64,000 bases of DNA from Psammoneis japonica (taxonomy: Eukaryota): NCBI GenBank assembly GCA_008632985.1, contig QPGO01000114.1, positions 124,001-188,000 on the forward strand. The letters are read 5' to 3'. Below the pieces are notes generated by a model. The model did no database searches and had not been told where the DNA came from. It saw only the letters and a list, made by a program, of their open reading frames with translations. The position numbers were made by a program, and so were the translations under genes. Every line of letters begins with the position of its first letter. Position 1 is the stretch's first letter. Positions 22,634 through 64,000 of this stretch are shown one piece after another.

Positions 22634-22809
22634 TGCAGGGCCTGCTGCAGCAACTGCTGGCTAGCTGGCTGGCAGAGTCGATCCCAAAATGAGACCCGGC
22701 ACAAATTAACTTTTTCCGCACCCACGCGGTTTCGCGCGATTGCCGCATTTAAACAAAATTTTCAGTTGTGAAGATTGCCAACACAAATGACAAAACTTTT
22801 CCACTCAAA

Positions 22810-32691: not shown

Positions 32692-33085
32692 GATGTGTCC
32701 CAGGCACAGGTGGGAATCGTCCGTGTGACATTTGGCCCACAGAATTCTGCATGTGAGGAGCTCCACAGCAAAATCACCAGGCAATGAACATGTCATTGAT
32801 TGCCAACAGAAAAAGAGGCAATTTTGCAGATGCAGCACAAACTCATCCATGATTGAAGCACATCATTTCTCACTTGGCTGGGTGCATTCTTCAGGGATTG
32901 AAGAGCACACCTGGCCCCACAAATCTGTCAAATAAAAAGTCTGGGGTTTCATAAAACAGCAAGTCTGGGGCAACTCTGTGGGAGAGCACATGCAGAAATG
33001 TGTGCGCAAAACATGTGATGGATGACAAAAAATGACCATGTCACATGTCAGTGCTGTGAGCTCCCACCTGGGGCTGGAACGAGCC
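32692..33085. mobile_element. MITE copy 3, older, same subfamily as 36662-37061 and inverted relative to it
   Basis: Degenerate TIRs gatgtgtcccaggcacaggtggga / tcccacctggggctggaacgagcc and the shared subterminal gtgacatttggcccacagaattctgc. Confidence 0.8.
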
Positions 33086-34517
33086 ACACACCCAAGTGTC
33101 TCAAACGAGTCTTTGGGGCAGCAAACAAGAAGCCTGAGAGCACAAGGCTTTTGCAGAATGAGAAGAGGGCGCCAGAAATGTGACAAGATTTGCAGGTGAA
33201 AAAGGATTGTCTTTTGTCCAATGATGACACCAGCTTTCATTCATCAGCAGTGATGTGGCCTGCATGATGAGGGCCATGTCAATCGGCAGCAGAGTGGTGG
33301 CAGCAAGTGCCATCATCTCATGCTTGATGTGCATGAGGTCAATCAATTGACAGCTCATGCAAAGAAGTGTTTTGGAACATTGATGGGGTGAGAGGCAGCT
33401 TTTGTGGGACAGACAGACAGTGTTGCAGTGAAAGATGTGCCAACAACTGCTGCGCGTGCTGCTGCTGCGGCGCTTTTGGGCTTGCAACTCAGGTTGTTGA
33501 GCAGGCTTTGTGCCCACCTTTTAGCTTCTGCACCTGGCTGATGCAGCAATTGTGGCCAACATCAATGGGAGTGTGTTTGTGGGCTGTGAAGCCAGCTTGG
33601 GTTGGCGAGACTGAATGTGTGCTGGCTGGCAAGCCGCAAAGCGTTCTTGTCTGCAGGCTGTTTTTAATTTTAGATGGTGAAGGGTTGGGAGCAGTGTTGG
33701 GGAATGAAGCCACCACATTTGCACCGGCAAGGCAGTTGGCAGCTCTGGGGTGGCCAAAAGAAATGCACAAAATCACCAAGCTTAAAGAGCACCAAAGAGA
33801 GAGGGCAGGTCACACTGCTGGCCTGTTCCAGCTCCAGGTGCTCCACTTTTCATCACGCTAGATTTTCTGTGCAGTTTTCAGTGCCAGACATTTTTGTCTC
33901 CACCTGGCAGAGCTTGCACTTTTTGGCTTCATGCAAACATTGATTGTTTTGATGACATGACACATTTGTGACATTGATGATCATGTGCAACAACTGAGGT
34001 GCACAATGCGTCACAGGAAGAATCGTGTCAGTTGGCATTTAAAATTTCTGGTGATGCACAGAACAACACTGACTTCTACGAACACGTGCCGTCCACCCAG
34101 GCCAGCGAACACACACCAGTCACAACGCAGCACACCGCTGTCACCACTCCACAACCCCCTCTTCACCCTTGCGGTTGTTTGCAACCATCTGTTCCTTTCA
34201 TTTCAAAGTCACATCGTTGTTGTCGCAATGCGATTGCGGCTCTAAAGAGTTGCTGTCATTGCAGAGAACACCATCTCTTCGCATTCTCTTGTTTCGAATT
34301 CGGCAAGTTGCTTCATCGTGTTTTTTTTTACGCGTCACCGTGTGCGTGTGTTTTTCTGGTTGTTTCTCACGTCTTGTTTTATGGTTGTTTTGCACCAGGG
34401 CCATCGGAATTTCCACAAAACTGAAGCATTCGCCCAGTCGTTCTCCGAGTGACATTTTGCACTGGAGCCAACTTGTCTTGGTTTGTTTTCACTGTGACGC
34501 TCACTGTTTGTGCTCTC

Positions 34518-34757
34518 CAGCATCTGGAGCTGCCTTGGAGGCTGCCTCTGTTCATCCGTGTCACTTTCGCGGCAACTGACGTTGGCCCCCTCTCTGGAGT
34601 GCATTTGTCGCACAAGCGGGAGCGCAGCTTGCTGTTTGACACTTTTCAGCATCTGGAACTGCCTTAGAGGCTGCCTCTGTTCATCCGTGTCACTTTTGCG
34701 GCAACTGACGTTGGCCCCCTCTCTGGAGTGCATTTGTCATGCAAACAGGAGTGCAGG
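34518..34757 (+). repeat. Tandem repeat with 129-bp period in the left arm of the transposon
   Basis: cagcatctgg...ctctctggagtgcatttgtc at 34518 and 34647. Confidence 0.9.
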
Positions 34758-37700
34758 GGCAGTGCATTTGCCATGGACACATTGGCCAAAGCAGCCTCCC
34801 AGCAGCGTCCCATTGGCGGCAGTTCCCCTCAAGCAAACGACAACTCTTCCAGCACGTTGAAGGTTTCCATTTGCGTCCAGCGTTGCATCGAGGCACTCAC
34901 GGAACATTGCCCACTGCAGGGTGAAGCCAAAACTTGGCACACTGTGCCTCTCCAAGAGGCAGTCAATCCCCTTGAGTGCCCTCAAGGTCTTGCAGATTTG
35001 AGCATCTTGACCACAGAAGATTGTGCGTCAAAGAAGATGAGCCCTCTCTTTCATGTTCTTCATCACAAGAATGGTTTGGATGGGTTCAACAGTGCCAAAA
35101 CACAGAACATGTTCCGCGACACTGTTGTCGATTGGTTTTGTGAAAAATTCAACTCCGAGAATCGACCGCAACTGAACCAGCGCATCAAGGACAAGAGCCA
35201 GCACCTCTTGATGTTGGTTGTGGTGCCATCAGGAATGTTGATGAGGGACGCCGTGAAGGACAAGCAAAATGTTGCCACTGTTTTGATGTGCCGTGTCAAG
35301 ACAAACATTGGCCTGCTTGTTGATTGCATCTGTGTGACAGAGTCTGAGGTTGTGGAGGTTGGGACGGGCAATGAGAGTGAAAAGATCATGCTGTCGAGTC
35401 AAGGTGCATGTCCTTTTTTGATTGGACTTGCCCAAGCCATTTGCCATGGTGTTGTCAAGAAGATGGATGCATGTCTTCATTGTCAGAAGACATTGAAGTC
35501 TTGTCACATGGGAGTGATGGGTTTTGAGGACATCGCGGACACCATGAGTGATCGTTCTGACCTGGCGGATGTCCACAAGCACTGGGACTGGGATCATCTC
35601 ATGGAGAATGATCAAGGCAACACTGTTGCCCTGTGTGCAAAGGAGAGGATTGCTCCAATGAGCTCTGCAATTGTTTTGGCATTGCCTCATTCCAGCGCTG
35701 AGCATCAGAATGTCGCAACAGATGTCCGCAACAATGAAGACTGTTGGGACGAACCGCTTGTTGAAGGAGGATGCATCGCTGATCACCGACTCCACTTGGC
35801 ATCTTTGGTCAACATTCAAAAACTAGAAATGCACGATGATGAAAAGTCGACATTAGATTTAAAAGCGCATGCGTGGCTGCCGTTTGGCAACGTCGTGTTT
35901 CAAAGTTGGTGGGGAATTGAGTCTCCAACGGGGAAGAAGAACAATTTTGAAATGTTGGCTTTGAAGGGGTTGCATGTCAAGTTCTGCTGTGAAACAAAAT
36001 GTCCCATTCTATCTGCCAAACAGCATTGGGGTTCAATCTGCAACTGTCGCTCTGTTGCAAACGAAGTCGCTCAGAGGAAGCAGGTGGATGAAAAGCAACG
36101 TCGAAAACCACGCATCAGCTGCAAGAAGTTGAAGAAGACCATTGTGGATCACAGCAACGATTGTGTTTTTCATGTCAAGCATTGCAAAAGGGAAGAGCTT
36201 GAACAGTCGGATGATGACATGAAGGAAGATCCCTGCACTCCCGAGCTTCCCACCAACGTACAATGCAAAGTGCTCACAAGTTGCGTGAATGGCTGCAGGA
36301 GGATTTTCTCATTTGGGCCATGCGACCCCAATGACAGACTGCCATCCAAGGCCTTGTTTGACATCTTTGCAGGTTGGTGGCACAACCATGTGTTGCGGAT
36401 GACCTCTGATGGTGAGTGCAGAGGCACCACTTGTCCGCCGGACCAGCGGTGCAAGCCTTTCAAGCCGCGACAATGCTCCCAGTCAGTGGAGGCCGTCACC
36501 GAAGACAAACACATCTTTGAAGTTCACTTCCCCGCCGGACCAAGCAGGAAGGACCATTGCAAAGAGCCGCTCAATCACCTTGCTGATTGGTGCAAGGCAG
36601 CTCCTGGACTTGCATGGTGTGAGTTTTGCAGAAGGATTCGTTGCCATCATCACTTGCATCAGACGCGCTCCAGCTCTAGGTGGGACCTCGCACGCACTGC
36701 TGGACTGTGACACAATTATTTTTTGTCATCCGTCGTATGTTTTGCATGCACATTTCTACGTGTTCCATTGTAAAAAATTGTTCCACACTGCCTCTTTTGC
36801 GAAGCCAAAGGCTTTCTGTTTTCTGCATTTGTGACAACAAAAATGCGCTGGGTGTGTTCTTTAATGTCTAAAGAACATGCCCGGGCAAACCACAAATGAC
36901 GCACTTCAAATTTGGAGGAGGAGATACGTTCATAAAATTGCCTCTATTTCTGTCAGCGATCATTCATATTTTCATTGCTTGACAATTTTGCTACGGAGCT
37001 CGCACGTAGAATTCTGCGCGCCCAATGTCACAAAAAGTCCCACCTGGGATTGGAACCCGTCATCACGCCAGTGCCTGTCATGCAAGGTTGAAGGAAGAGC
37101 TGGAGGAGGAGGAAAAAGAAGAGGGGAAGGAGGGCACTCAAGAGACGGATGACCTGCAAAAGGCCGAGGCTGGCACTGCCAGGTTGCAACTGCAAGACAA
37201 AAACCAGGAGGAGGAAGATGGGGCCATGGATCAATCGTCTGAGGAAGAGGAGGAAGATTGCGGTGTGCGAGACGGAAAAATCCAGGAGGAGCAAGATCCA
37301 GAGGAAACTGAGGACGAGGAGGAAGATGAAGACAAGGAAGAAGTTTCTGAAGCCAAGGCTGCAGAAGAGAAGAGGGAGAAAGCCAAGGCTGCAAAAGAGA
37401 AGAGGGAGAAAGCAAAGGCTGCAGAAGAGAAGCGGGAGAGGGCGGGGGATGCTTTTTGCAGACGTGACAGGCAGCTCATGAAAGACACAACTGGTGTGCA
37501 AAAGGATGAGGATCTCATTGGCCTTCGCAGCTCTGTCCCGAAACCAAGGCCAAAAGGAGCCACTTCATGGCATCGGTTGACCAAAGAGCAGCGACACCAA
37601 CAAGAAAGGGATTGACTCGAGCATGAGTGCGAAGACGCTCAAGTGATGTTGCAGGTTAAAAAATTCATTTGGATTGATCCAAGTGCATGGAACAGCAGGC

Positions 37701-38770
37701 GCCAGCATCCTGGAGATTCCGAAGGAGCTGTTCCTCACTTGTTTGGTTGCTTTGAAGGGAAAAACAAGGGCGTCATTTTGTGGGAACCATGGTTTGATGT
37801 GCGACACAATGAAATGAACGGCCACCCCATGAACACGTGTGCGGCCCTCATCTCACGCACCAAACACAAACCAAACATTCCCCAGCAACTCAATCGAAAA
37901 TGCAGGGACGAAATTAAGAACAAGGTGGAATCGATTTGCAACCCACCACAGATTGCCAAACTGAAGAGATTGGCTGAAGCGGAGATTCAAAAACTTCCAC
38001 CTGTTGGTCGGGGAGCTGATTTCATTGGCTGCAGCTCAGAGGGGAACCGTCCCATGTGTGCAACCCTGGATTGGGCTGAGTGCAATTTCAAGTTTCGGTT
38101 TCCAGATGTGTGGAAAGATTTGAAACAGTTGAAGCCATCGGATGGTCATTGCTCCTTGCCGGAAGGAAATGTGTTGATGCCATCGAACAGAAACTTGCCG
38201 ACGAGCGGTCCACCTGTGAAATTCCTGCAAGGACAAAATGACACTTGCGTTTTTTCCTCCCTGGCCAGTGTTCTTGATTGTGTTGGCAATGTGGAAATGA
38301 GAGACTGCATTGCTTCTCACATTCAAACATCCACCAACTGTGCTGACACCAACAACAAGTGCATGTTGTTTGCAAAGAACATGTTGAACGGTCGTTTGAA
38401 GGGAAAATTCCCGCCCACAAACTCAAACATGAAGTTTTGCGGCAGTGTGGATCGATCGATTTCCCTGGCAGCAGGTGATGAATTTGATGTGACAACCTGC
38501 AATTGTGACTTCACAACTTTGTGCCGTCTTTTGAACAACCACTGCATTGCCTTGCACCATGGATGGATCTTTGATTCCAACCACCCTTTTGCATTGCCAG
38601 CAAACGACACCAAGTGCTTGAATTGGTGTCTTGGGAACAAGGAACATGAGGTGAAATGTGTGGCAAAAAAGCGTCTGCAACAAGTGTTCATGGTGCACCA
38701 GTTCGAACTTCCCAGGGCGGCGCAGCAGCAGCTGTGTGCAAAAAGGAAAGCTTTTGTGTTGGATGGTTAA
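34728..38770 (+). pseudogene. Transposon cargo ORF (about 1200 aa reconstructed): possible GNAT-like region, acidic linker, papain-like peptidase domain
   Basis: Removing the MITE and one TSD joins HHHLH to HASACHARLKEE in frame; one in-frame TGA at 37613-37615; C-terminal Q-x4-T-C-VFSSLAS ... H-CIALHHGWIF-D-SN. Confidence 0.7.
36662..37061. mobile_element. 400-bp MITE copy 4, TSD ATCA, retains many TpA
   Basis: gacgcgctccagctctaggtggga ... tcccacctgggattggaacccgtc with ATCA on both sides. Confidence 0.95.
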
Positions 38771-38828
38771 TCCAGCTGCACAATTTAAAATGACAATCAC
38801 AGTGTTTGTTCATTTTCCCATTTGCACT

Positions 38829-41800
38829 TCATTTGTCCGACTCATCACCGTCACTGCCCCCTGCCACGCTCTCATCATCCTCCACAGTGCGTTCCATGCC
38901 GTCATTCTCTCCCTCACACTCACCAGCTTTGATGTTTTGTTCCTCCACCTCGTCCAAACAGTCCTCAAAATGGTCCATTGCCTCCCGCTGTCGGGCGGCA
39001 TCCAGAATTCCTTCATGCTCGTCATCGCTCAAATGACGTGGATGAAGAAGTGAAGCCTCATTCCTGTTGCATGTGCTTGGCAGTTCCCGATTGGCCGATG
39101 GTTCATCAAGCTCAATGTTGGCAATTGCAGCTTGCTTCAGCAACACTCTTGTCTTGCATTCCTCAGCATCACCGGGAGTGTGCCATCCTCTGGCCCGTGG
39201 AACAGGGTCAAGATGCATTCCCTTGCAAACCCATTCACCGGCCTTGACAGTTGTGGGTGGGTCAAACTTTTCCCACACCTCATCCTCCTGTGCTTTGTGG
39301 GGGAGTTCATCCCATTGCAGCAGACAAAAGCCCTCCTCAGATTCACAAGACAATGTGGCATGGCTGTTTAGAACAATTTCCTTGGCCATTTCCTCAGTCA
39401 GGAAGTCCAACACAGATTTGTGAACCAACTGCACCTCGTCAGCATCACTCTTGTCTGTTTGGATCACCTGACACACTTGCCAATCATTCAGTCCCTCAAA
39501 GACAGGCCACAATTTGCAAGCTCGGTTGCCACCTGCATGTCGTGGCTGCTCTGTTGGCTCGACATTTTCAACCCAAGGGCGTTTGAGCTGATCCAGGCAG
39601 GCTTCACAAGCACAAGGAATTCTTCGCATGGCAACCCAACCAGTGGGGAAAAGAGGTTCAAATCGGAAATGGCACAAGGCTCCAATGCCACAATGGCATG
39701 TGCACACTTGCACCAATCCAATCAACTTGACTTCAATTAAAGAGCCAATGACTTCATCAGCTTCTTGCAGACAATGCACCCTTTGCACTGACTTTTGAAG
39801 GGATTCCCTCTTGGCATGTTTTCTGTCACCAGCTGCGCCCAAAGCATTCTTTTCCTTTGTGACTGTTTTGCAACATTCCTTGGCATGACTGTGTGCAGCT
39901 GCAACACACTTGTCATCCATGACCAAAGCTTCAGGTCTAATTTTTCCATCCTTGTCATTGACTCCTGCGACAATTGTGGACTGCATTTCTCGATGCACGA
40001 GTGATTTGATGCAGGCTCCAATGCCATCAACCTCTCCTTTGCCATGTCCAGGTGCTCCAATGGCACGGTCAAACACAATGTTGCATTTGTGCGCAAATGC
40101 AGACAACAAGCACAGTGCCAAAGCACATCGGCACTGTTTGGCACAACCATCAGTGTGATCCCAAATCACAAGCCACGCCTTGCACAGGTTGCGGTTTTTT
40201 AACCAGATGACAAACTTTTCCAAGTGAGTGTGGGTGGTGGTGGGATCTTGCTTGGAAGAGTCAGAGAGACGCGCATGATGTGTTTTCTCAAGCACATTGT
40301 CAACCATTGCATTGCAAACTCTTCCTTCAATTGACAATGTTCGGTTGTTGCCACAATGGTCACCCTGAACTTGCTTGTTGAACTTTGCCTTCTGATGCTC
40401 GGAGAAGTCATGAGACGTGAACAGGCTGTTGGGCATTGACTCAAATGCTTTGCGACGCATTTCCATGCAATGATTTTTCCCAAGAATGACCACATGGGGA
40501 AGGTGGCAGCGCAGCTTCTCTAAACTTGGAATGCAGTGCTCTTTTACAAAGACACCGACTGGTTTGCGGAACCTTGTCAACAAGGTCCTTCATTTCACCT
40601 TTGCATCCTTGTTCCCATCTGGATCTGCCTCACAAACAGGACATGCTTCCATGTGCACACCATGCTTGGAACAACTTTTTACAGTCAAGTGACGTTGAAA
40701 CAAAACTTGGGGTGCACCAGGACTTTCATTCTGCTCCAACAACGGAGTTGGACAGGATGGGCAATGCTCACATTCACCCAAAACGCATTTCCAATGAGGA
40801 TGATCCTGACCATTGACGCTGCCCCAAATGATGGTTGCAACTGCATCTCGGGCTTTAGGATGAAGGTGATGGCCGTTGGGGCCAAACGCCTCATCTTGAC
40901 AGACACACATTGTTTCCTCCAATTTGCCAAGGGCACTGTCACAGTTCTCCGAGTTCTCAGGATCCTCACTTGCAAGCTTCAACCGACTTTGCTCCACCTC
41001 CATCTCTTTCAAAAGCTTCCTTCGAAACGTGTTCAATGCATCTTGCAGAAAATTGGCGTTGGTGCAATCGCTGCATTGACACATGCTGCGTTGACTTGCG
41101 CTCATTTTTCGACACTGCTTGGGAATCAAAAACCAAAACATCGTGTGGCTGATGAGGGTCTTGCCATTGGCATCACGTGCATGTTTGAATCCACCAACAG
41201 AAACAGGCTTCAACATGTTGTTGTGAAGCTCACGCATGGACACATTGCGCAACCATTTGTTCACTCGTTTCTTGTTTCCATCTTCATCTTCAATGAGAGT
41301 CATGTCTCGTGTGTTGGGAGACTGCACTGTGTTGGGATGATTTGACAACCAGTGCACAAATGCCTTGCGGATCTCAGGGGAAACTTTGTGAGGACGCCGA
41401 CGGGGTTGCACAGAAGACCACATGACATCGTGAGTGTTTGAAATCAAGGCCTCTCTGATTTCCTTCCCCTTCTTCATTTGGCGATGAACAGTGCTTCGAT
41501 TCAGGCCAAGTGCCTTGGCATGGTCATGGGAAGACAACATTTTCTCATCAGCAGATTTTTCTGGTGAACCGGAGATTCCAGTTGCCAGAGCATGGACAAA
41601 TGATTTTTTGTTGTCAGCGAGGTGTTGACCATTGCTGGTGTCGTTGGCACGTGCCCACATTTTGCCCAGCTGCTGGGTGATTTGCAAGGCCGCAGAATTT
41701 GTGCTTGGCAACGTCAAATTGCAAGCCTGAACAAATGGGGACAACTCGGGAAAATGCAAAGTGTGCACAAAGGCACAGATTTGTTGTTCTTGAGTGGCGG

Positions 41801-42360
41801 CGCAAGACAGCACTTCTTCTCTTGCTTTGACCGCTGCACGACAAAGTGCCTGTTGGGGATCTTTGTGAGTTGCTTTAAATGCATGAGGATTGAAAGTGGG
41901 GCAACCTTTGGAGGTGGCAAGGTTGACATCAGCTCGGTTGGCTGAAGCGACAGAGGGAGCAAGGGCGGCATTGTCAGAGGTGAGGTTGGAGGGAACGGCG
42001 GCAGCTCCTGCAGCGTGCATTTGGGAGGGGCCTGGTGGTCTTGGCAAGGACAACCCTGGACAATGAGTGGGGTGCTCTGTGGAGGTGTTCAGGTTGAAAG
42101 CAGCCAGGTTGGTGGGAGCAACGGAGGGAGTGACGGCGGCAATGTCAGCGTTGGGGTTGGAGGGAGTGGAGGCCACTCCTGCAGCGTGCATTTGGGAGTG
42201 GCTTGGCGGTCTTGGCAAGGACGACCCTGGACAATGAGCGAGGTGTTCTGTGCAGGGGTTCGGGTTGAAAGCAGCCTGGTTGGCGGGAGAAACGGAGGAA
42301 GTGACAGAGACAGCAGAGTTTGGGTTGTTCGGGTTGGAGGGAGTGGCTGCAGCTCCTTCA
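38829..42360 (-). pseudogene. Transposase (over 1100 aa) with one in-frame TGA at 40590-40592 and 171-bp repeats in its N-terminal part
   Basis: HDFSE, WDHTDGCAKQCRC (DGCxxQYR) and GAPGHGKGEVDGIG motifs plus Cys-rich segments; the 542-aa and 584-aa ORFs are in the same frame. Confidence 0.8.
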
Positions 42361-43764
42361 ACTCAGCCTCAGCAACGACATGGTCGGAGACCGTGTCGTG
42401 TTTTTCAAGTTCGCGAGGCTTTTGTTTTTGCTGTTGCCAGTCCCTGACTTGTGTCAACGGCCAACTCCATTTTGCTTCTTCCTCTTGTTGCCCATGATGC
42501 ACTGGAAATTTGATTAAAAGTGTGCATCAAGAGGGCTGCTGGTGGATGAGACGGGCGGCAAGTCGAGAGGACACATTTTTTTGGCGCGCTCAATCACATT
42601 GGCTGTTCTGTGTCTGCATGAATGAGGCATGTTCGGACGTCAGTTGAGTTGAAGAAGACCAAACACACGAGCTCCGAAAAATGAAAAAGTGAACAATCAC
42701 CAGCATTTTTCACGTGGAATGGGGCACCAGCCAAAAATCACATTTGGCACAAACAAGTCCTTCATTTTTGATCATTTCGAAAATCGAAAGGTGAGTGTGC
42801 ACCCGAAAACACATGTAAAGTGCACACTCACCCTTCAATTTGGCAAAAAACGGATTTTGAAAAAGTTAATTGCGCCAAACCTAAAAATGGGCTGATGGTG
42901 GGAATCGAACCCACTCGGAGCACCTGGAGCTGGAACAGGCCTGCTCTGACGAGCACCATGTCGAAAGGACTTGCTGGTGATCATCTGGTCTGCAACTTGT
43001 GGAAAGGGATGACACAATCATGTGAAGCAGAAAGTGAACACATTGCAACAAGCATTTCAAGCGCCGCACATTCCTTGACGGAACGGGGATGCATTCCGTG
43101 CGCGAAGTGGCTGCTCTAGAGCTGCCAAGTACGAAGTGGTAGCAGCACTGTAGTTACTTGTGGGATACAGATGAAGCGTCATTTTTCGATTTGTCCAATG
43201 ACAAGCATTAAAATATCATCATTGGTTTATTATTCTATTTAATTTTTGCAGCGGCAATGACTTGTGGGATTTTGTTTGTTAAATCAAAGGTCATTCCAGC
43301 GCTGAATATGATATTATTTGTGTCTGAATACATCTATTGTAGGGCATAAACAATTAGAAGGGCTTATCTTCCTCACGTTTTGATCAGCGATTTGATGACC
43401 AAAATGCAGTCGAAACACTAGCCCCATGCTGTTGAGTGTCTTTGTGAGCACCACGGCAATGTCCACAAGAGTGCCTGTTGACCAACACTCTTTCAACAGG
43501 TTTGAGCAAGCACACGTTGTTTGATGAGTTCCGTCCTGTTCTAGTGAGGAACACAGAGCAATCGCCACGAAAGCTATACCTGTCGGAAGCTCTGTCGGCT
43601 TCGTCTTGGAGCTTCAAACTGTTCACAGCCTCCGGTAAGAGTGAATTAACCTGTTTTCTTCTATGTACGCTTTTCATGATGAGGACTTGGGCTGTATTGC
43701 TTGTTCAATTTGCTTCTTTGACGTATCTAACAAACTATTGTTGCCTCGATCGCGTTGCAGAATA

Positions 43765-44899: not shown

Positions 44900-47800
44900 T
44901 CGAGACTTGTCCGCCCCACTGCGAGTTGTCAACACTGGCCAAACAATCAATTTCACCCGTCCCCTGCGAATTTCTCTAATTCTTAGAAATTGGGCGCTCA
45001 CAATCAGAGATTTTCTAATCCACACCACAAAATTAAAATGACAACCCCCCTTCTTCCCCCCTGGGAAAATGTCTCCGGAGTTCAGAGAGGTTGGAGTGGC
45101 CGCTGCTTTGCTCTTGCAGTCAGAGGGGCTGGCCCAGCGCTCTGCAAAGTTGGCTGTGTTTCCTCCTGAGAAATGTTTTTTTCTCATTGACAGAGCTTCA
45201 AAAACAAGAAGCTGTGCGCTGGAATTTTTTTGCGTGTGTGCAAGTTCCCTGCGCTGCGCTGCACTTGGCCCACATCTTCGACAACTGTGGCTGCTGCAGG
45301 CTGCCCTGGTGGGCTGCTCAGTTGCTTTTCTCATTTGAGCGCCATTTCCAGGGAGTGCACAATCTGAGCAAGATTGTCTGGTGCTGTCACCCACATGACA
45401 CACACTGTTGATCTCATCTTTTGCTGCTGGTGCCAGTGTGCTGGCGTGTGATGTGTGGCCCAGCTGCTCCGCGCCACGTGTTTGGGCTGTTGGAAATGGC
45501 ACAGAGAGGCACGTGAGAATTTGTTGTGCAAAATTGCTCTGCAAAAAGAAGAGCAAGCTTCTTCTCAGGGGCTTCACTCTCCTCTTTTTCCATTGCTTGT
45601 GTTTGCCCAGTTTTCTCAAAGAGGTGGGTGCCGTGATTTTTTGCTTTTCAAAATCCAGAATCTTTCTGCTCCACACACAGCAAACACACTGCTGGGCTTC
45701 ACAAAAGGTGTGGTCATCCCCATGTCAGCTCACACACCAGCCTGTGTCACCATGCACCAAACCTGCAGGGCAGGTGGGCAGGCATTCAGAGTTTGTGGTC
45801 GATCGAAGAATGAGCTGATGCGGCGGATCGAGCCATTGACAGATTGTTGGCAACGTTTTTGGTGTTCATGTGTCATGTCACCCCCACTCCAGTTGATGTC
45901 CAGCCCACATTGTTTCCCCTCTTGGCGCACTCCTGTGCTTCATGTTCTTGGCCTTTTTTGCAAGCTTCTCATCCTTCTTGACAGCACCATGCTCACACAC
46001 GCAACTCATCTTCTTGGAGTTTTTTGCATCATGCTTGAGGAGTTGCTGGCCTGGCTTGAATGTGCACAGCCTGATGTCATTGACTTTGAACACCATGGCT
46101 TGTTTGCCCATCTTTTTGTCTGGCAGACAGAGCTCATTCACTGCTCTGTTGTTGTGCATGATGCAGCACTTGCCCTTCCAGGCTGCAGTCTCTCACAAGG
46201 CTCTTCTTGAGGCCCTTGCAAAAATGGTCATCACTGTTCTCTGCAAACAGGCATGCAGCCCATGTCTCAAATGCAGTGTCCTTTGGTGTGGTTTGCTCCA
46301 CTGGGAAAATGCAGTGCTTGTGTGCCTTGGTGTTCTTGATGGGTCCATCCAGCATCTTGACACCAAGACCATTGCTTGCAGCATCTTGTTGATTCTTAAA
46401 TCTTGATGGGCAGCCCTTCAGCAACTTGTCCTCTTGTTGTTTCACTTCCCAAGCATGTGCTTCAGGGATTTGGCAAGTGTGTGGAATGGACATGGACCTC
46501 TCATGGAGTCAAGCTCAGTGACTGGATCAGCTTCAACAGTTTGATTGGTTGATCAGGTCATCTCTGATGTTGTCACAACTGGGGTTGGTGAGCACTCTCT
46601 GACTCATCAGTGTGGGATTGCTGCGCAAGTGCAGTGGCCTTGTTCTCCTCAAGCAAATTTCATTTTCTCATCACAGTCATGTGATTTGACAACCTTGCAC
46701 TCCTCATGCTTGCAGCTGCTTCTCTTCTTGTTGCAACTTCTGGGAAAATTTCTCCTGACAACCACAATTGTTTGGGGCTGACCCTGGGGCCACAACTGTT
46801 GTTGGTGCCCCCAATGCAAAAGGTTCCCTCGCTGGAGAAATCCTTGGTGCAGGCCATGTCTTCCAGAGACCTTGTCAGATGTGTGCAACCTGATCATGCT
46901 CTTTCTGTGTGTGGGTGATGATCTTCTTCTTGATGTCCTTGCATGCTCCTGTTCATCAATGATGGGTGAAACTTCCACTCTGGCCCAAAGTTCCTCTTTG
47001 GGTTGGTCTTCTTGCCCTTGTCACAGGAATGCTTGTGGCCTCTGCCACCCCTGCCTGGGTCATGTCCTTGGCCTTCAGAGTGCTCACATTCTGCCTCCTC
47101 CCCTGCCACTCATGATGCAGGCTTCCTGCATTGGAAATTTTGCATGGAGGTTGCGGCAGCACTGCATGCACCAAATGCAGTGCTTGCAACTCTTTGGAAA
47201 AGTGAGTGTTGAGTCAACAAGTCAATGTTGTCAAAAGGGAATCCTCTGGGGTTTCCTGTGCCACTTGTTGCACTTGCCCTGGTTGCCATGGCAACTGTGG
47301 TTTGCCTGGAAGTCTCCAACAAACTTTGGCCTTGCAATGTGACAGGTGCCTGCTGACATCACAGTGTGGCTTGTGTGGGCCAGATGGCTCACACTCCAAA
47401 GAGTGAGATCAAAAGAAGAGTGCAGGTTGGCAAGATTGGTGACAAGCACACATTCATTTGTTGGTGCTGCCGAACCCACCACAAGGCACGATTGCCTTCA
47501 ATCTGACCATGCAGCTTTCCAATGATCATGATTTCTGCCCTTGCTTCAACCTTCACACAGCATGTGGGCCGGGATCTTTGCATGGTGAGTTGGCTTTGCA
47601 TGAGGCAGTTTGTGGCATGACTGTTTGGTCAGTCAGCAAGTTCTTTTTGGACAATGATGACAAAGAGCATGTCTGCAAATGGGGCGAGTGTGGCTGCCAT
47701 CCAATCCACACAGCTTTTTTTGCTTTGCGTGGTGGAGCCCACTGCTGCCAGAGCAAAGCTTGTGAGATTTGTTGTCAAACAGAGCTGATGCTTCTTGCAT

Positions 47801-49660
47801 TGATGCCAACAACAGCGCTCCTTTTTGTTGGGCTTTGCAGGGCTGGTGGTGGCAAAGATGGGGTGCATGTGCTTTCAATGAAGAACTGCCCTCTTGGCAT
47901 GCTCTCCATTGGCAAAAACCTTGTTGTTGCACTGAGTCATTTAGGCATGTGTTGCATCTCTCAAAGGGGTTGTGCAATGCCAAGGTGGTGGCAGCAATGA
48001 GAATGTTAGAGGGCACTTGCTTTTTGTGCTTGTCTGGTGACTTTGAAGCCGTCAAGAAGAGGAAAAGAAAGACAAAGTGCACAGCACAAGCTTGTCAGGT
48101 TTCAGGGCTAAAAGAAGACATTTTGTGCTGCTGTTTCTTTCTTCCAATGAAGTTGAAGCTGTGTGTCAACCACAAATGTCATTTTTTGTGTGTGTTGTTG
48201 CAGCATGTCTGAGAGTGAGTTGCTTCATTCCTCACCAGGTGGCGCTCAAGCCGATCCCCTCATCATGGCGTGGCGGAAGAGAAGACTGCCCCCCCCTCCC
48301 CCACCCACCCTGCCCTGTGCATGTGACAGGCAACAAAAAGCAGATGTGTTTCAGTTGTGTCGTTGTGGAAATCATGAGCTAGTTTAGATGCAGAGAAATG
48401 GGATCGTGCGCTCACACTTTTGCCTTCTTTTTGAAGCAAAGGTTTCCAGAACAAGCAAGGATGATGTGCCTCTTCATGTGGCCACATGCGCTGGCGGCAA
48501 GGGCATCATGGCAGCTGCCATCTTGTTGAAAAATGGTGCTCACTCTGTGGCACTCAACAAGCAGCTCAGATGGCCCCTGGATGTTGCAGCCAACAAATTC
48601 TCTGAAGAGTTGAAAGTGGGCTTGTCTCCAAGTGGTTTGAGCTGTGACCTGAAATTGACTCGCTGGATGTTGCAACCTGTGGATTTTCTGAACAGTTGAA
48701 AGTGAGTTGTCTCCAAGTGGCTCCAGTGGTGACCTGAAAGAAGATTAAAAAAATGCAAACAAAAAAAGCAGCAGATGGCCAAAATTGAGGAAACCTGCAA
48801 CACACTCACACCAGCTGTCAGGTCTCCTCAGACTCTCTCACAAAAGCTCGGACACTCATGCTTCACCATCCGGAGTGTCTGGAGCCTGCAAACACTCTGA
48901 AGTCTGAACATTTTTGGCAAGCTCCTGATTGCATCAAGTCCATCATGAGCCTCTGGATCATTGTGGCAGCAGTGGCATTCTTGGCAGCAATGCACTTTCA
49001 AGAGTTTGGAGGATGCTCTGGATCTTGGTGGCGGCAACAATCAACATGCAGCATCGTTGCTTCTTGCTGTGCTTGAAGGATGCCTGGATTTTAGAAGCTG
49101 CAGCATTCTTGGCACTTGGCAACAAAGTTTTGAAACACCCTCTGCCTGGATTGTTGTTGCAGCAGCAGTCATGTTCTTGGCAAAAGCGTGCTTGACCAAG
49201 CTTCGAAAAGCATGCTTGGTCATCTTGATGGCACTGATCTTTTTGTGCACCACATTGAAGGCTGGAGGAATGGAGTGGACATGCCACAGCACTGACTCCA
49301 TTGACAAGTTGGGAATCTCCATGATGTTCACACGGACATTGTGGGTTACATTCACTCTGCAGCTTGTGCTGACAAAGCCTTTGGATCCATGTTGGCTGAG
49401 TTTGCGTGGGAAAACAAGGTGGCCATTTCAACCCTAATTCCCAAATTGTTGGATTTTCTCAGTCACTTTGTCAAGTCATCAACATGTGTTGCTTTACTCT
49501 GCACAACAACACAATGGAAATGGGAATCTTCCTTGCCTCAGCAGAGGGCAAGACAGTGCTTGTTCTCAATGTGTGCTTGCCAATTGCCCCCCAATTTGCT
49601 GTTGGATGTGGTGCAGAACACTTTTTATGAGCGTTGAAGTGGCGGAGGGGGGCACACACC
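44900..49660. other. TpA- and CpG-depleted domain 3 of heavily decayed sequence
   Basis: Very TG/CA-rich; faint remnants resembling copia gag (~46180-46265), an ankyrin repeat (~48440-48600) and IQ-like motifs (~48950-49170). Confidence 0.85.
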
Positions 49661-54049: not shown

Positions 54050-55850
54050 TAGATTCTGCAGGCGTCCACAGCTGTTTTGTGCTTTTTACATCACAGGTCA
54101 TTTTCGAAAGATTCCTGTTGACATGCACCTCAATTGTTCAGTCTGCACAAGGCAAAGCAAGTGCACGCGAGCGAAATAAATCAAGAAATGATGTCAATTT
54201 GTCACATTTTAGAATGGGGCATTGGAGCAAGTTTGTGGCTTGACCTCTGAGAAGATTTTTTTAGAAAGAAAAGGATCTGGGGCAGTGTCCGCTGCAAGCT
54301 TTGTTGTGAAGAAGTCATCCTCTGTGTCTTTTTGACAAACATTTGACATTGGGAAAAGAGCTGGCCCTTTGCCTGTTGGGGGTTCCATTGGAGATGATGA
54401 CACACGATGTGTCCTTTCGCTGTGGAGAGCTGGGGTTTCAAGCCCCCCCCCCCTTGGTGTGGCGGTGCGAAGTGGCTGGGGGCAACCAACAATCACATCA
54501 GAGTGGCCTTGCAGCTCTCAACCACAGCTCTCAACCGCAGTTCTCAAAGCCTGTTGGGGTCCACCAAAAAGATCTCCAGCATGCTCCAGCTGCAGTTGTT
54601 GGGGTGGCTGGCACAATCAAGCCATGTGAGACAATGGCTGCTGCAGCCATGACTCCTGTCTCTGTCCACTCTCATCAACGCAGACATTCTCTGCCACAAA
54701 TGGCAGCTCTCCTCTCTGTGGCAGCAAACAATGGAAACCAACCATTCTGTGGCAGTCAGCGTCTGGAGCAAATGTGCGCAACTTTGTTGGTCATTTGGGC
54801 TTGATGGTTTCACGCATTTGATGGTCAGATTGGTGCGCGGGGACAACTCCGCAGAAGAGGCACCATGTGGGGACAACTCTGGAAAAGTGAGAAAAAAAAT
54901 GGCATGGTGAACAACTCTTGGCTGCAAAGCAAAGCCACAGCAATTCTTGCAGTGTGCTTTTTTGCTCACCTTTCTCTGCTCCAAATGATTGTCACAAAAG
55001 CTGTGCACTGGTGCTCCCAAAAAACTCAATGTGACCCACAACAAACAACCCCAATCCACACCCTTCTTTGTGAACCTCTGCGTTGTCATTCAAGCATGAC
55101 ACAACCTTGATCTTTCTTGCACTCTGTCAAATTTGCTCTTTGGGGTGTGTGGAAGAGAATGCCAGGGTCAATCATCAAAGCAAAACCCAAAACCCATTTT
55201 TAAGGTGCTGCCACACTTCTGCCCTGCAACTCTGGCAAACACCCCAAGCACACTTAAAGTGTGGCAGGAAAAAGCCAATCATGAACAACAGAAACTGAGC
55301 CCAAATGTGAGAGCACTCGCCTGCATCGGGGTGGGAACAGCGCAAGAACCCCCCAACAAGTGACACATCTTTGTTCAAGCACCATGACGCACCCTTGACA
55401 TTTCCTTGGCTCTGTCTGATTTGCGCTCCAGGGTGTGCAGAAGAGAGCATCAGAGCTTGCAATGTGTGACAGCAGGTGCCCAGCAACACACCAGACAAAG
55501 CAAAATCACAAAACACCACATGATTTGCTCTAAAGAATGAGAGAGAAGCTAAAAGGGGAAAGAGATCAGCTGCAATGAAAAATCTCAGTCACAAAGACAA
55601 GTCGCCAAAGCTGCCATTTCAACAGAGCCACAGCATGTTCTCTTTGACACACCCTGGTTTCTCAAATTTTCTGTGATCTGGGTGCAGTTGCAACACCATC
55701 CTGAAGAGGCAAGTGTCAGTGCCCTTGCTTTTTTGCATCATCTGGAGTTCTTCTCACGTGATTTGATGTCTTTTTCCACCACTCCTTGTGCCCCCTGTGT
55801 GCAAGCATTGTGCCCTGGCAGTGTCGCAAGACTTGGGCACACTGAATTAA
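54050..55850. other. TpA- and CpG-depleted domain 4
   Basis: TA nearly absent; no recognisable protein. Confidence 0.8.
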
Positions 55851-56459
55851 TCTCACGTATTGGGCGGCGCCCCTGACCCCACTTTCACCCCAGATTGTCA
55901 AAATGTGTAAAACACCCCTGTTTTGTAAAACGCCCTAGTAACAAGCAGCGGCTTGGGTCGTCATGGTGCTTTCGACAGTCGAGTCGAGCAGTTTTTGCTG
56001 TTTGCGCATTCAAATCGCGCGCAGTGACAGTGAATCTTCACTTCCGGGTTCCTTCTGGTTTTGTTTCGACATCAAACATGACTGACGACTGACCGACGAA
56101 TGCTCGAAAAAGCCTGCTACGTAGGATCCTACGTAAGATATAGGGTAATGAGCCAAAATGTGTGTTTTACACGACGAAGCACGTGTTTTACAGAATAACA
56201 CGTGGTTTTACGATTCCCCCCCTCCCCCCCCTTTCACCGCGATGGTTGCGCCCAATACGTGTCAGCGCGCCCCTTGCCAGAGCAGGGGCTGTTTCTCTGC
56301 TTGTTTTCCACATTCCACAAGTGTTCTCGAAATGACTGAGTTGAGCTTGTTCGTTCTTGAACGAAATTTCCACAGATTTGCTTTTGACACAATCGAGAAT
56401 CTTGAGCTTGGCATCAGCCTTGTATGTGGAGGTTCCCAAGATTTGCTTTGCTCTGCCAG

Positions 56460-59567: not shown

Positions 59568-60547
59568 CCTTGTGGACCATGTGGTGCCGAAGTAGAGAGT
59601 GGACGACAGCGATCGCTTTCGTCAATTTTTATGTACAGGTTACAATGTTCTCTTTGATCTTTTTGTGATGCGTCGAAGAATCACTCTCTGGTGTTAGTTG
59701 TCAATCAATCACCAATTAGAATACTGTACACGCCTTTTGCTCGACGCGCGTCACGGTTCAGGGTGTACACAAATTTTGTACCACAGTGGCGTAAGTGATT
59801 TTTATCTGACATTCTACATGCGCCTAGTGGCGTAGGCCCAGTACAAAAGCAATAAATTTTTGAAGTTTTGTGACGTAGGTACGGTACGGTACAAAGTCAG
59901 AGCATGTTGTGGCGTACCGGGTAGATTCGACATCAACAAGGCTTCGCGCAACACTCGCAACAACCAAGACAACAGAAAACCGCTCGCAAAATCTCGCTCC
60001 CAATTTACACGTTGCAGCTGATGTGGTGTTGTTCATTCGTCTCACTCGTTTTCATCGTGGAACCTCCTGGTGACACAGGGTGTCTTTCAGGCATGTGCAT
60101 CGGTCTGATTGCCCCCCCCCCCCCTCTTTGGGCAAGAATGGGGTGTGTGGTTTGCTTCTTGAAGACACCAGACCAGCTGCAAGGAGCTTGCAGTGGAGAG
60201 CTGGCAAGCAAAGCACTGGGCTGCACCACAAGGCACTGGCTGATGGGACAGCATTGGGCAAGCACAACCACAAGCATTTTCCTGAGGGCACTCTTGCACT
60301 GTGCTCGAAGAACGAGTGCAAACGAAAGTGGAACAGTGTGCGAAAAGTGGAAATTATGAGATTGAATTTTGCTCTGTGATTTTTGGTTTCTCCGAACGAG
60401 TTCTCAATGGCCCAAAGCTTCTGCACTGCTTCTACAGACAAAAGGCCTTTCGGAGAATGTGTTCGTGACAACAGATTGTCTGGACGCGATTGCCATTGAC
60501 ACGCAAGATGTCAACATCGTCAATCGATCGTATTTGCAATTCTCGAC

Positions 60548-60821
60548 TGACAGAAATTGAAGGCAAATGGCAAGAATTCAAACAATGACTCCTTGCTGCT
60601 GTCTAAATGGCAGATGAGTCTCCGCTCAGAGACCGTTGCAGGAGCCGAGAGACGTGCAAGTCGGCACAATCGGGCCACTGTTGTCATTCTTGTGAGCCTT
60701 GTGGCTCGAAAGCAAACCACATCGCGCGTGAACGCGCGGAACTAAAGCACACAAAACTGTGCACGGCAAACTAAACAGCGCGTGATGCTTCGCGCACCCA
60801 AATCCTGTTCAAATCCTGTCA
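60548..60821 (-). mobile_element. Probable 3' LTR (274 bp) of the copia element
   Basis: On the minus strand a purine-rich tract aactggggag is followed by TGACAGGATT; the matching inverted terminus tgacagaaatt is at 60548. Confidence 0.65.
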
Positions 60822-63800
60822 CTCCCCAGTTTGCTTGAGGAGCCACAGAAACAGATTCGACTTCGGATGGAATGAAGTTCCAGAACATGAGGGGGCGGAG
60901 AAGGTCCCAGATTTGGGAGCAACCCCAATGCTTTCTGAGAATGTCAGCAGGGTTGCGGGAGCCTTCGATGAAGTGGAGCTCAAGGTGGCCAGAGGCAATT
61001 GCCTCACACACGCGGTGGAACGACAGTGCGGTGTGTCGCTTGTGTAACTTGGAGTGCGGGATGGTGGCACTGTCTACAACCGACTTGTTGTCACCGAACA
61101 TGCAACCAACGTTGCGGATCGGGACGCCAAGGTGGCGCAGGGTGATGCGCAGGTTGACAATCTGCTCAACACAAGTCCTTGCGGCAACAAATTCAGACCC
61201 GCAGGTCGCAGTCTCCACGGTGGCTTGTTTCTTAGAGAACCAATCAGCCGGGAATTTGTTGAGGAAGTGGAGCATTCCCATGACAGAGCGTCCGGTGAGC
61301 ATGCAATGGCACAAGTTTGCATCGACGCAGTGGGTGGTGGTGACGAACTTGCCAAGGGGCGGTGGAGCGTCCTTCGGGATCATCTCTTCTGCTTCGCCAT
61401 GCACGGAATGCATCCATTCATGGGCCGGAGCAGGGAGATCCGAACAGTCGGGCTCTTCCGTGCGAACGCGGAGAGCACCGTGTCGCATCTTGGAGAGGCA
61501 CCCACAGACGCGTTTGGCACGGTCCAAGTGGCCTTGACGGGGCGCAGCTCGGAAGCTAGAGAGTGACATGACGGCCGTGGTGATGTCAATTCGACCAAGG
61601 GACACTGCCCATTGGAGTGAACCAACAAGAGACTGAAACTTGTGAATGCCATCGGGTCCCAGCAGTTCGGAAGTGTCCAGTTCGGGGTGGTCACCCTTCT
61701 CCAGAGGTGACAGGGCGTTGGTGGTGGGTTTCTCCCCAAACAGTCGGGCGCAGCTGTCGACCATGCGCTCGATGTACTTGCGCGGAGACAGGCACAAGGT
61801 TCCGTCGGGGTCCCGGGAAAAGTCGCAACCCAGATGGAACTCAATGGGTCCCGCACCCTTGAGCTTGAACTTGCACTTTTCCGTGAGAGTGTCGACGAAA
61901 GATTGAGGGTCCTTCATGGCAATGGCGAGGTCATCCACATGAACGGCAATGCATTCACAGTGGTCGCCGTTCCTGCGCATCCAAATGTCGGGTTCGGCGC
62001 GGCAGGGGAAGAAGCCTTCAGCTTGCAGGCAGTCGGCGAAGCGCTCGTGCCAGCGGAGACCGGAGCTGCGCAGTCCACACAATGCCTTGTGGATGACAAG
62101 GATGTGTCCTTCGAGTTTGCCGAACTCGGGTCCAGCTACAATGTAAAGCTTCTCCTTGGTGGTGGCTTCAAGGCAGGCATTGCCAATGTCGGTGGCCCAT
62201 GTCTCCAACTCGTTGAGTTCGGCCAGGAAAATCATCAGCCGAAGGCCACGGAGGGAGACTGCTCCGGAGCAGACACTGTCGACAGGTGCATCCGTGAGGT
62301 GCCCGTCGGCTGCGAGTCGTGCCTTGTGGCGACCGTCGTGTTTCACGTCGCACACTGGGTGCACTCGGATCTTCTTGTGTCCCGCAGGAGGAGTGGAAGA
62401 CTTGAAGGGCCCGCAGTCATGGAAGACTTCGTATTCGTCGAGTTGGTCCATCTCGAGATCAGTTGCGTCTCCCCACTTGCGATTGCCGTTGCATTCGTCC
62501 AGTGACATGGCGTGTTTGCAGTTTCGAGGAACTTCGCATCCATGCTTGCAGTGAGGTGCAGTGCGGAAGGAGCGAAGCTTGGCTTGGTTGGCCATGCGAA
62601 GTGGCTTCTTTTGGCGCCTCGCGATGGTGCGGAACTGCTTCCAGCCATCCGTGTCGAGGAGTCCGTTCTCTCGTGCATAGATGGCACAGGTGACAGGGTC
62701 GTCCTTGGCGATGATGGCAAGAGGCTCGGACGTGATCTCCCCACTTTCCCATTCAAGCATGATGTTGTAGCTGGAGCCTTTCCAGGTTGGGTCGTGAGGC
62801 TTCAGAGGTCCTTCGTGCGACACGATGCGTCGAAATTTCCAAACAGTGGCATCTTCGTCTTCTTGCTCAATGTGATTCATGATGTCATTGCAGGCAAGGA
62901 CTTCCTCGCATTCGTCATTGTTGACAGAGCAGACGAACTCAGTGAGCTCGGGATTGCCGTTGACTTTCCATTCGTGGTCTTCGACGGCCTTGACGATGCG
63001 AGCTCTGTGGCGTTGTCCGTCCTCTTGTGGCTGCATGAGGAAGGCACGTCCAATGATGTCTTGCGGATCGAAAACTGGCATCTTGGGTGTCCTGATCTCC
63101 CCATCAGGAGAGTCGACGGGGTTGTCGTCATGGCGAGATTTGATGATGGGTTCAGGTGGCTCCCCATCAGGAGGATCAAGACGCAGGTTTCGAACGGCAG
63201 GATCGGGGGTGGCGGAGCGGACGTTGGACCGGCAGAGGATCTTCTGAGTCTCGTCAGATAGAATCTTGAAGGTCATCTGGTGGCCGACATGCTCAGCAAT
63301 GCCAACGAAGCGTCCACGCAACTCACGGGATTCAGACGGCCAATCGGAGTCATCGAGGTGGAAGCACATGGGTTCCCACCAATGAAAGCAAAGCAACGGG
63401 CTGATGTCCGGGGTGGAGCCAGTGAGAGTCTCGAGGGGCGTGCGCCAGTGGAGACGTGGGGACGCTGTGTGGTTGAGCATGAAGCACACGCACATGAGCG
63501 CCAGCAGCCATGCATGGGCGGGCGAACCAAAACGATCCATGACAGTGTTCGCCATGCGCTTCACGGTCTGGTGTCGACGTTCGGCAAAGTTTTGGTGTTG
63601 CTGGTGAGGCTCACTTTGCCAGCTAGAGATGAAGAGGGCGCGCAGGATCCCGAGCACTTTGTTGCTGATCTCAACTTGAGCACGGTTGCCAATGAGTTTG
63701 GATGGGGCACCACGTTCACGGATCTGATCCTCGAGTGTGTTGACAAACTCTTTGTCTGTCTCAGTGCCGCAGACGTCAGTGACGGCAGACTCGGTGCCAA

Positions 63801-64000
63801 CAAACAGTTGGGCGCTGGTGCAACCAGAGTCGACGGCCGGGGTGTCGGCACAAACGGTGTCAGTGGCGACAGGCTCGTTGCGGCGGTGCACATTGAGGGC
63901 GGGGTTGGGTGATTTGTGGGCCTTGCGAAGGTGTGCACCGGCGGGCATGCGGGCGCACTGCGTGGTGCAGTCAAAAGTACGACGGACCGCATCGGCAGGT
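60742..64000 (-). mobile_element. Ty1/copia (CoDi-type) pol: integrase-RT-RNase H, open for over 1000 codons, continues beyond the window
   Basis: QSEPHQQHQNFAERR (integrase), DVKHDGRHKARL, DIGNACLEA, KALCGLRSSG, VHVDDL (RT), VDANL, ETATCGSEF, FGDNKSV, NPADIL (RNase H); integrase precedes RT. Confidence 0.95.

Follow-up and report, generated by a model that had tools for sequence, protein, structure and literature searches.

How can a retrotransposon protein lose nearly all of its conserved tyrosines while its reading frame stays open? The question is raised by a copia-type pol open reading frame (ORF) at the right-hand end of a stretch of 64,000 nucleotides from Psammoneis japonica (assembly GCA_008632985.1, contig QPGO01000114.1, positions 124,001 to 188,000, forward strand); we refer to this whole stretch as the window, and positions are given within it. 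An initial annotation had read the frame as a young copia pol in which dozens of context-specific hits arrived before any indel or nonsense change. We conclude that the lack of Tyr is a by-product of a mutation process that turns TpA into TpG or CpA. We put at about 0.62 the probability that this process is a DNA-level, repeat-confined, TpA-specific A:T>G:C hypermutation, which follows the logic of fungal repeat-induced point mutation (RIP) with the opposite chemistry.

Tyrosine and TpA in the copia pol

The frame lies on the minus strand and runs from stop to stop over 60742..63999 (1085 codons), still open at the window end; it is the frame that had been given slightly short, as 60742-63948 and 1068 aa, and it is indeed free of stops and frameshifts. 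Its 1085 residues include 5 Tyr (0.46%), in agreement with the earlier count, together with 45 Cys and 52 His. The composition of 40 aligned relatives is 3.3-4.9% Tyr and 0.9-1.6% Cys, and Tyr makes up at least 2.9% of every relative among the 120 matches listed. The Tyr deficit is far beyond chance. At columns conserved in at least 80% of the 40 relatives (575 columns; 29 Tyr, 546 other), the window copy kept 4 of 29 Tyr, with 20 Cys, 3 His and 2 Phe at the rest, and kept 499 of the 546 other residues. The YGL, YVDD, NAYL and TYGSEF columns carry Tyr in 40/40 relatives and Cys or His in the window copy; at the VCDVKH column the relatives have 24 Phe and 16 Tyr. All 11 motifs quoted in the initial annotation are present, and the Cys and His quoted in them fall without exception on Tyr or Tyr/Phe columns of the 40 relatives. 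Relatives thus carry Tyr, not the same Cys and His residues. The Val>Ala and Leu>Pro changes that had been ascribed to GTA>GCA and CTA>CCA were borne out by V563A (GCA) and L548P (CCA).

The dinucleotide composition points to the source of these replacements. In its 3.26 kb the copia element retains 15 TA (observed/expected 0.10); the ratio is 1.57 for CA, 1.26 for TG and 0.89 for CG, and near 1 for AA, AT and TT. We rejected GC-biased gene conversion, because AA, AT and TT are unaffected. Among 72 replacements at the conserved columns, 33 were TpA-type (28 TA>TG and 5 TA>CA, including TA steps across codon junctions), 7 were CpG-type, 3 were other transitions, 17 were transversions and 12 required several steps; the transversions and multi-step replacements are likely to be ordinary family differences. 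Classed by dinucleotide, 33 of the 43 single-step transitions therefore lie at TpA, compared to 7 at CpG and 3 elsewhere, such that the hits are context-specific, as had been claimed, and change outside TpA is low rather than as high as change at TpA. The gains match the losses. The nearest healthy relative (L001) has 44.7 TA, 75.6 CA and 53.5 TG per kb of coding strand, compared to 4.1 TA, 89.3 CA and 80.4 TG per kb in the window copia, so that the loss of TA (40.6/kb) equals the combined gain of CA and TG (40.6/kb). CG density is 72.8/kb in the copia compared to 78.1/kb in L001. The copia copy has lost 91% of its TA, and depletion is nearly complete (91-98%).

The same changes bear on the open frame, which the initial annotation had taken as a sign of youth. 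TA>TG or TA>CA makes no new stop, because T>C gives no stop-codon base and A>G after T yields a stop only as TAA>TGA; rather, the process removes TAA (to CAA) and TAG (to CAG or TGG). The five non-coding frames of the pol contain 13 TAA and TAG, compared to 112 in L001; opposite-strand frames of 250-264 codons are open across the pol, and the pol frame itself continues for ~37 codons after homology has ended, as far as a TAG that was spared. Since no stops are made and TAA and TAG are erased, an open frame is expected at any age and only the absence of indels is informative. Thus, the intact frame does not support the description of the element as young, and the arrival of the hits before any nonsense change says nothing of their speed. 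The picture of a fast, specific and stop-free process was nevertheless essentially right, including its effect on the YxDD motif of the reverse transcriptase (RT), which is inactivated without a stop and reads HVDD at 61930-61941; the claim of youth is unsupported, and the scope of the process was much underestimated.

The ORF at 60742..63999 belongs to a Ty1/copia long terminal repeat (LTR) retrotransposon that is present in very many copies in a diatom genome, and it is the pol of one dead copy. Its residues 538-749 match Pfam RVT_2 (E 2e-22; 80.4 bits, cut-off 31.6), and a protein search with it returned 2024 relatives, the best at 69% identity, most of them gag-pol polyproteins of ~1860-1900 aa. 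Residues 802-1850 of one of these (P0001, 1859 aa) align collinearly by tblastn to 63999-60859 with 69% identity. Since the window frame corresponds to residues ~802-1850 of the relatives, the element continues past the window end, and its gag, protease and 5' LTR lie outside. There are ~530 conserved residues upstream of RT; a Pfam search detected no rve domain in the window ORF, nor in the healthy relatives P0001 and P0005. The host is a diatom, as judged from an ABCG gene nearby whose best named matches are from Attheya, Helicotheca, a Bacillariaceae metagenome-assembled genome and Thalassiosira. The parts of the element are as follows.

60853..63999, minus strand: pol (integrase-side part, RT, RNase H side), recognized by RVT_2, tblastn and the 2024 relatives; cut by the window end
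61930..61941, minus strand: RT catalytic motif HVDD (CAT from TAT/TAC); YVDD in 40/40 relatives
60742..60852, minus strand: read-through tail of the ORF; homology ends at 60853-60880, and the surviving TAG at 60742-60744 stands in the refractory context T-TA-G
60295..60800, minus strand: putative 3' LTR, inner border uncertain; outer end ...GTGCA at 60295; very high depth
59923..60294, no strand assigned: part of a different repeat, low in copy number and poor in TA, that separates the LTR end from a flank with normal TA

The putative LTR is itself TA-poor (6 TA in ~505 bp), and the adjoining fragment has a single TA (60006) in 370 bp at a summed depth of ~600, with normal TA density below 59922. 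At LTR positions 60547 and 60782-60791 many sister contigs share a consistent alternative sequence, unlike the window copy; since the alternative is consistent, the window LTR departs there from the majority form by an indel or subfamily change.

TpA loss in other repeats and in sister copies

The initial annotation had noticed a single element. The process is window-wide rather than copia-specific and reaches every repeat block. The window alternates between gene regions (TA observed/expected ~0.6-0.96), which hold F-box, ABCG, SAD/SRA and amino-acid transporter genes, and TA-poor repeat blocks (0.02-0.15), which make up 57% of it. We counted 161 TA in 36,605 bp of blocks (4.4/kb), compared to 1047 TA in 23,104 bp of gene regions (45/kb), and the block borders are sharp, within ~100 bp of neighbouring genes. 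Tyr accounts for 77 of 2820 residues (2.7%) in ORFs of the gene regions, compared to 6 of 4107 (0.15%) in those of the TA-poor blocks, and GC is 57% in converted DNA compared to about 48%. The blocks, delimited by dinucleotide counts and without strand, are these.

9501..12251: TA-depleted repeat block; holds a second RVT_2 fragment at 11188-11733 (minus strand) with 0 Tyr
14501..24001: TA-depleted repeat block; TA observed/expected 0.02-0.14, CpG kept
29301..43101: TA-depleted repeat block; its first 4.5 kb also CpG-depleted (CG observed/expected 0.10-0.32)
45001..49651: block poor in TA and CpG
54101..55901: block poor in TA and CpG
59.9-64 kb: TA-poor block including the copia

Since the copia and the 14.5-24 kb block keep CpG, TA decay and CpG decay are separable. 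The CG ratio of 0.89 in the copia, compared to 0.03-0.3 in some blocks, indicates that TA loss does not depend on CpG decay and outpaces it, and CpG loss appears to follow TA loss. Three stretches (29301-33751, 45001-49651 and 54101-55901) combine TA ratios of 0.02-0.1 and CpG ratios of 0.03-0.3 with CA and TG each near 2.0. Apart from these, we note that the SAD/SRA gene (51603-52565, minus strand), whose kind of domain reads methylated DNA, lies in a gene region between blocks, probably by coincidence.

A second element, unrelated to the copia, shows the same loss.

38832..42362, minus strand: integrase/transposase-like protein frame of 1177 codons with one stop; 0 Tyr; 1118 relatives

Its relatives are ~1130-1190 aa long. 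The C-terminal 586 residues (38832-40589) contain 0 Tyr, compared to 2.3-5.2% in 19 relatives; at Tyr columns conserved in at least 60% of these, 0 of 12 Tyr were kept (6 Cys, 5 His, 1 Phe), and 123 of 179 other conserved residues were kept. No Pfam family was found for this ORF or for 5 of its relatives. In an AlphaFold2 model (mean predicted local distance difference test score 74.7), residues 39-270 resemble the RNase H-like cores of integrases and transposases, with VIA-align Z scores in the middling range of 8.1 for RSV integrase (root mean square deviation 3.6 A over 149 residues), 7.6 for Mos1 and 7.1 for IstA; residues 398-525 match BAH/Tudor-like domains, and Foldseek returned nothing for the model at E<=0.001. 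The N-terminus consists of tandem proline/asparagine-rich repeats (41895-42360). The modelled fold thus makes the second element a likely RT-less, DDE transposase-like one, whose family may be an undescribed DNA transposon superfamily of algae, and the TpA process likely strikes DNA transposons also.

Other Tyr-free frames lie in or between the blocks. An ORF at 12653-13588 (plus strand) encodes an MMS21/NSE2-like SP-RING SUMO ligase (Pfam zf-Nse E 4e-13; PDB MMS21 E 1e-7). Flanked by a repeat block on either side, the ORF contains no Tyr among its 312 residues, and its TA density is ~21% of normal; a 324-codon ORF overlaps it on the opposite strand, and a homologue search gave a single weak match. 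The TpA process may have spilled over into it and damaged a host-type gene or a copy of such a gene. Three further long Tyr-free frames without a Pfam match stand in TA-poor blocks, at 34668-36707 (plus strand, 680 codons), 37616-38767 (plus strand, 384 codons) and 44861-45724 (minus strand, 288 codons), and these may be hypermutated genes of other elements or mere products of stop-codon erasure.

Comparisons among copies identify TA as the ancestral state and reveal how the copies were hit. We found no nucleotide sister copy of the copia elsewhere within the 64-kb window. Inside it, we compared the following pair of repeats.

10316..10704, plus strand, and 21523-21911, opposite strand: 389-bp repeat pair with 30 mismatches and no gaps

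The mismatches comprise 10 CA/TG swaps (20 bases), 7 CG-versus-CA/TG differences, 3 other transitions and 0 transversions. Since 24 CG are still shared by the pair, CpG decay would yield well below one swap, which implies a saturated TA source. For the copia, we aligned the contigs of a public DNA run (X1) on 59500-64000; this run may be the window's own source and is therefore not independent of it. The family is present at very high copy (8304 contig pieces, 1989 of them at >=99% identity), with a summed depth of ~60,000-540,000 on the element, compared to 52 on the single-copy flank and ~600 below 60255. The copies differ by 256 transitions (A>G 63, C>T 68, G>A 74, T>C 51) and 39 transversions. 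Among 40 of the 297 differences, for which we have site-level detail, 37 are transitions, and 29 of these 37 fall in a CA or TG of the window copy. At nine adjacent TG/CA switch pairs, the change that forms TA was found in more contigs than its partner in eight cases, with one tie. Thus, TA must persist in some copies; with CpG as the ancestor, the TA-forming change would instead be the less frequent of the two. Judged by depth, ~10-30% of the family is still TA at such sites. TA, CA and TG coexist at one site, and sister copies were hit INDEPENDENTLY, that is, independently. Both here and in the 389-bp pair, the counts led us to reject CpG decay as the origin of the CA/TG swaps. Some CpG>TpG/CpA changes are private to the window copy, in that nearly all sister contigs lack them; examples are those at 60481, 60763, 60783 and 62636.

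The signature recurs in DNA from other records. We fetched 50 environmental relatives with patterns from the mutated protein, which favours mutated relatives; 46 of these keep most of their Tyr, with replacements mainly by Phe, and 4 are TA-poor, with Cys and His replacements about equal. The four are metagenome contigs of 1-2.8 kb without LTR pairs.

L035: TA observed/expected 0.13; conserved Tyr kept 2/17; Cys:His 7:6
L030: TA observed/expected 0.27; conserved Tyr kept 1/18; Cys:His 7:8
L014: TA observed/expected 0.31; conserved Tyr kept 12/23; Cys:His 6:5
L049: TA observed/expected 0.37; conserved Tyr kept 0/7

Since these come from other records, the process is not confined to the organism of the window, and since L014 is a half-converted intermediate, the process is graded. 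The sister copies L030 and L035, which share 94.6% identity over 1721 bp, differ by 20 CA/TG swaps and 26 TA-versus-CA/TG sites, with 8 CpG-type differences, 12 other transitions and 7 transversions as the remainder. In contrast, between two healthy relatives that have diverged equally far (L017/L023) we counted 3 swaps, 15 TA-type differences, 75 other transitions and 26 transversions. At shared Tyr columns, L030 and L035 had opposite outcomes (His in one, Cys in the other) at 8 and the same outcome at 7. A search of viral contigs with the protein and the alignment found no full-length TA-poor relative with both LTRs, and a relative from genome contigs (L051, 53% identity) was not used, its TA being only moderately low (0.17-0.65).

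Which strand is hit, and in which context? Both Tyr>Cys and Tyr>His occur (20:3 in the window copia, 6:5 in the integrase-like ORF), which implies action on both strands, and sense-strand T>C (Tyr>His, Val>Ala) was seen in all five elements examined. We then expressed the survival of each N-TA-N context as its frequency in the blocks relative to the gene regions, these standing in for ancestral repeat composition. Survival was highest for TTAA (0.58) and CTAA/TTAG (0.34), followed by GTAA/TTAC (0.10), ATAA/TTAT (0.08) and CTAG (0.075), and lowest for CTAC/GTAG (0.05), ATAG/CTAT (0.037), GTAC (0.035), ATAC/GTAT (0.025) and ATAT (0.01). An additive effect of the flanks fits these values, with R-TA-Y the most susceptible and Y-TA-R the least. 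Among the 25 TA sites at which L030 and L035 remain polymorphic, these refractory contexts are over-represented (TTAA, TTAG or CTAA at 12), which points to a shared mechanism in the two hosts. If the base 3' of the edited A is assumed to set the rate, the survival data and the Tyr>Cys skew are both accounted for, but only 10 of 16 informative L030/L035 sites and 5-6 of 8 sister-copy sites agree. In view of this poor fit at polymorphic sites, we report only the symmetric preference of R-TA-Y over Y-TA-R. A k-mer excess analysis of the attacked strand was confounded by CpG decay. The loss is therefore specific to TpA and confined to repeats, affects both strands, strikes copies independently and to different degrees, and follows a common flank preference; we regard this signature as secure.

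Probable hypermutation of repeats and the alternatives to it

We infer that the process works on the chromosome once an element has integrated, and that its targets are repeated or silenced DNA, since sense-strand T>C is common and since an RT-less element, whole blocks with their non-coding parts and the MMS21-like ORF were all hit. TpA becomes TpG or CpA by an A:T>G:C transition on either strand, most likely because an enzyme deaminates the adenine of TpA or because the TpA thymine is modified such that it mispairs with G. The consequences are enzymes killed (YVDD to HVDD), GC raised, TAA and TAG erased, and long, stop-free and Tyr-free pseudo-ORFs left behind. More tentatively, and at slightly worse than even odds, we suggest that some diatoms own a dedicated genome-defence editor that rewrites TpA in repeats to TpG or CpA on the chromosome; such an agent would be a natural, context-specific A:T>G:C DNA editor, either a DNA adenine deaminase or a modifier of TpA thymine.

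Several points weigh against repeat-directed hypermutation as just described. The window copy is skewed toward Cys (20 Cys, 3 His; P=0.018, with 0.65 expected from context), which would also fit a strand-coordinated event or some editing of sense RNA. A 777-bp direct repeat (1-777 and 4288-5064; 98.3% identity, 3.5 kb apart, 5 mismatches) is untouched, with normal TA, 37 shared TA and no TA-type differences, such that either duplication alone is insufficient or this duplication is too recent. For the second element, which likely extends the process to DNA transposons, the Z scores are middling and no Pfam family was found.

We considered that TpA loss might be passive, a slow by-product of base modification or of a repair defect in silent chromatin rather than a dedicated, episodic defence; a modified T or A at TpA could miscode in the way that 5-methylcytosine (5mC) does at CpG. 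The self-complementary target and the TG and CA products are exactly those of CpG decay; the effect is graded (L014), TA and CpG loss coincide in several blocks, and the recent 98% duplicate of 777 bp was spared. We nonetheless regard slow decay as unlikely. With TA 91% gone, CpG barely touched (0.89) and only 3 other transitions, the rate at TpA must lie far above that at CpG in the same DNA. According to one preprint, eukaryotic N6-methyladenine (6mA) occurs at ApT near transcription start sites, not on repeats, and is hardly mutagenic, and the diatom Phaeodactylum has 5mC only, with 6mA absent (10.1101/2024.10.28.620566). This placement, the low mutagenicity and the absence from Phaeodactylum argue against canonical 6mA as the cause. 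Alternatively, an ADAR- or ADAT-like deaminase might edit UA in the genomic RNA, or possibly in minus-strand cDNA, before integration. Both types of deaminase prefer a uridine 5' of the edited adenosine, and the 20:3 skew at the Tyr codons of the window copy is a sense-strand A>G skew. If editing occurred during retrotransposition, however, sense T>C would not be expected in 8 of 15 converted Tyr in L030, 6 of 13 in L035, 5 of 11 in L014 and 5 of 11 in the integrase-like ORF, nor would an RT-less integrase/transposase-like element and the MMS21-like ORF be struck, nor whole blocks, non-coding DNA included, be depleted on both strands. We therefore consider such editing improbable, somewhat more so than passive decay.

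Two other explanations would dispense with a mutation process altogether. Modified TpA in repeats might be systematically miscalled during sequencing or assembly; some long-read base-callers do systematically miscall modified motifs. However, the signature is found both in the contigs of the public DNA run and in four independent environmental contigs, and TA, CA or TG occurs at one site among copies rather than as a uniform miscall, which makes an artefact very improbable. It is harder still to credit that the family is natively poor in TA and Tyr yet functional, through adaptive recoding or an odd codon usage. The open frame and the 1989 of 8304 sister pieces that are at least 99% alike would agree with a functional family, but residues invariant in 40 relatives are replaced, the catalytic Tyr of YxDD among them, sister copies retain TA at the same sites, and the non-coding parts and the other five frames are depleted to an equal extent.

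Relation to known systems

A full-text search of one literature library returned no account of repeats being hypermutated at TpA in diatoms or other algae, and a term search of the main text of two diatom transposon and genome papers (PMC2806351; PMC8147415) found no mention of such a process. Repeat-directed hypermutation as a defence has so far meant cytosine deamination, by RIP in fungi or by APOBEC in vertebrates. If our reading is correct, an A:T>G:C process at TpA would be new both in its chemistry and in the eukaryotic supergroup concerned. It would amount to a second and chemically opposite invention of RIP outside the fungi that pushes repeats to higher GC, and its agent, a natural sequence-specific A:T>G:C DNA editor, would be of interest for base editing. 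Practical consequences follow too. Gene callers will predict stop-free, Tyr-free frames as proteins, while domain models frequently miss them; in most of the TA-poor blocks of the window, Pfam has no match. Because the divergence of copies and LTRs is inflated, ordinary LTR dating and Kimura landscapes would be wrong for such genomes. GC-richer islands are created, and genes between repeats may suffer, the MMS21-like ORF being a possible case.

The element itself resembles the diatom CoDi copia elements (Maumus et al. 2009, PMC2806351), in that it is a copia gag-pol with RVT_2 in a diatom host, and it has many marine and freshwater environmental relatives. The marks that it bears resemble those left by ADAR A-to-I hyperediting and APOBEC3 G-to-A hypermutation, which are fixed in vertebrate retroelements as clustered transitions of one type on dead copies (PMC4866542). 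Those marks lie on a single strand and on retro-copies only, unlike the changes here, which affect both strands, non-coding DNA and an RT-less element. ADAR-type editing would give sense A>G only and on retro-copies only; instead, we found sense T>C in five elements and an RT-less ORF affected.

Decay of 5mC at CpG shares with our process a self-complementary target, TpG and CpA products and discordant CA/TG between copies, and co-occurs with TA loss in some blocks of the window. It differs in the ancestor, which here is TA, as judged from the converted TAY codons of conserved Tyr, the TA in sister copies and the CG ratio of 0.89; with a TA ancestor, no cytosine chemistry can produce the loss. 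CpG depletion does not explain the gain of TG and CA in the copia, and is present in addition at 29.3-33.7, 45-49.6 and 54.1-55.9 kb.

The closest parallel is RIP, as known from Neurospora crassa and other fungi. Like RIP, the diatom process is restricted to repeats and spares genes, acts on both strands and at one dinucleotide, strikes copies independently and to varying degrees, and disables transposons by saturating them with point mutations; the restriction to repeats, the use of both strands and the independent hits on copies were all found here. The composition, in contrast, is the reverse of that left by RIP (TA 0.10, CA 1.57, TG 1.26). RIP is C:G>T:A mainly at CpA, makes TpA, lowers GC and creates many stops, whereas the process in this diatom, which is not a fungus and in which a two-copy 777-bp duplicate was left untouched, is A:T>G:C at TpA, destroys TpA, raises GC and can make no stops.

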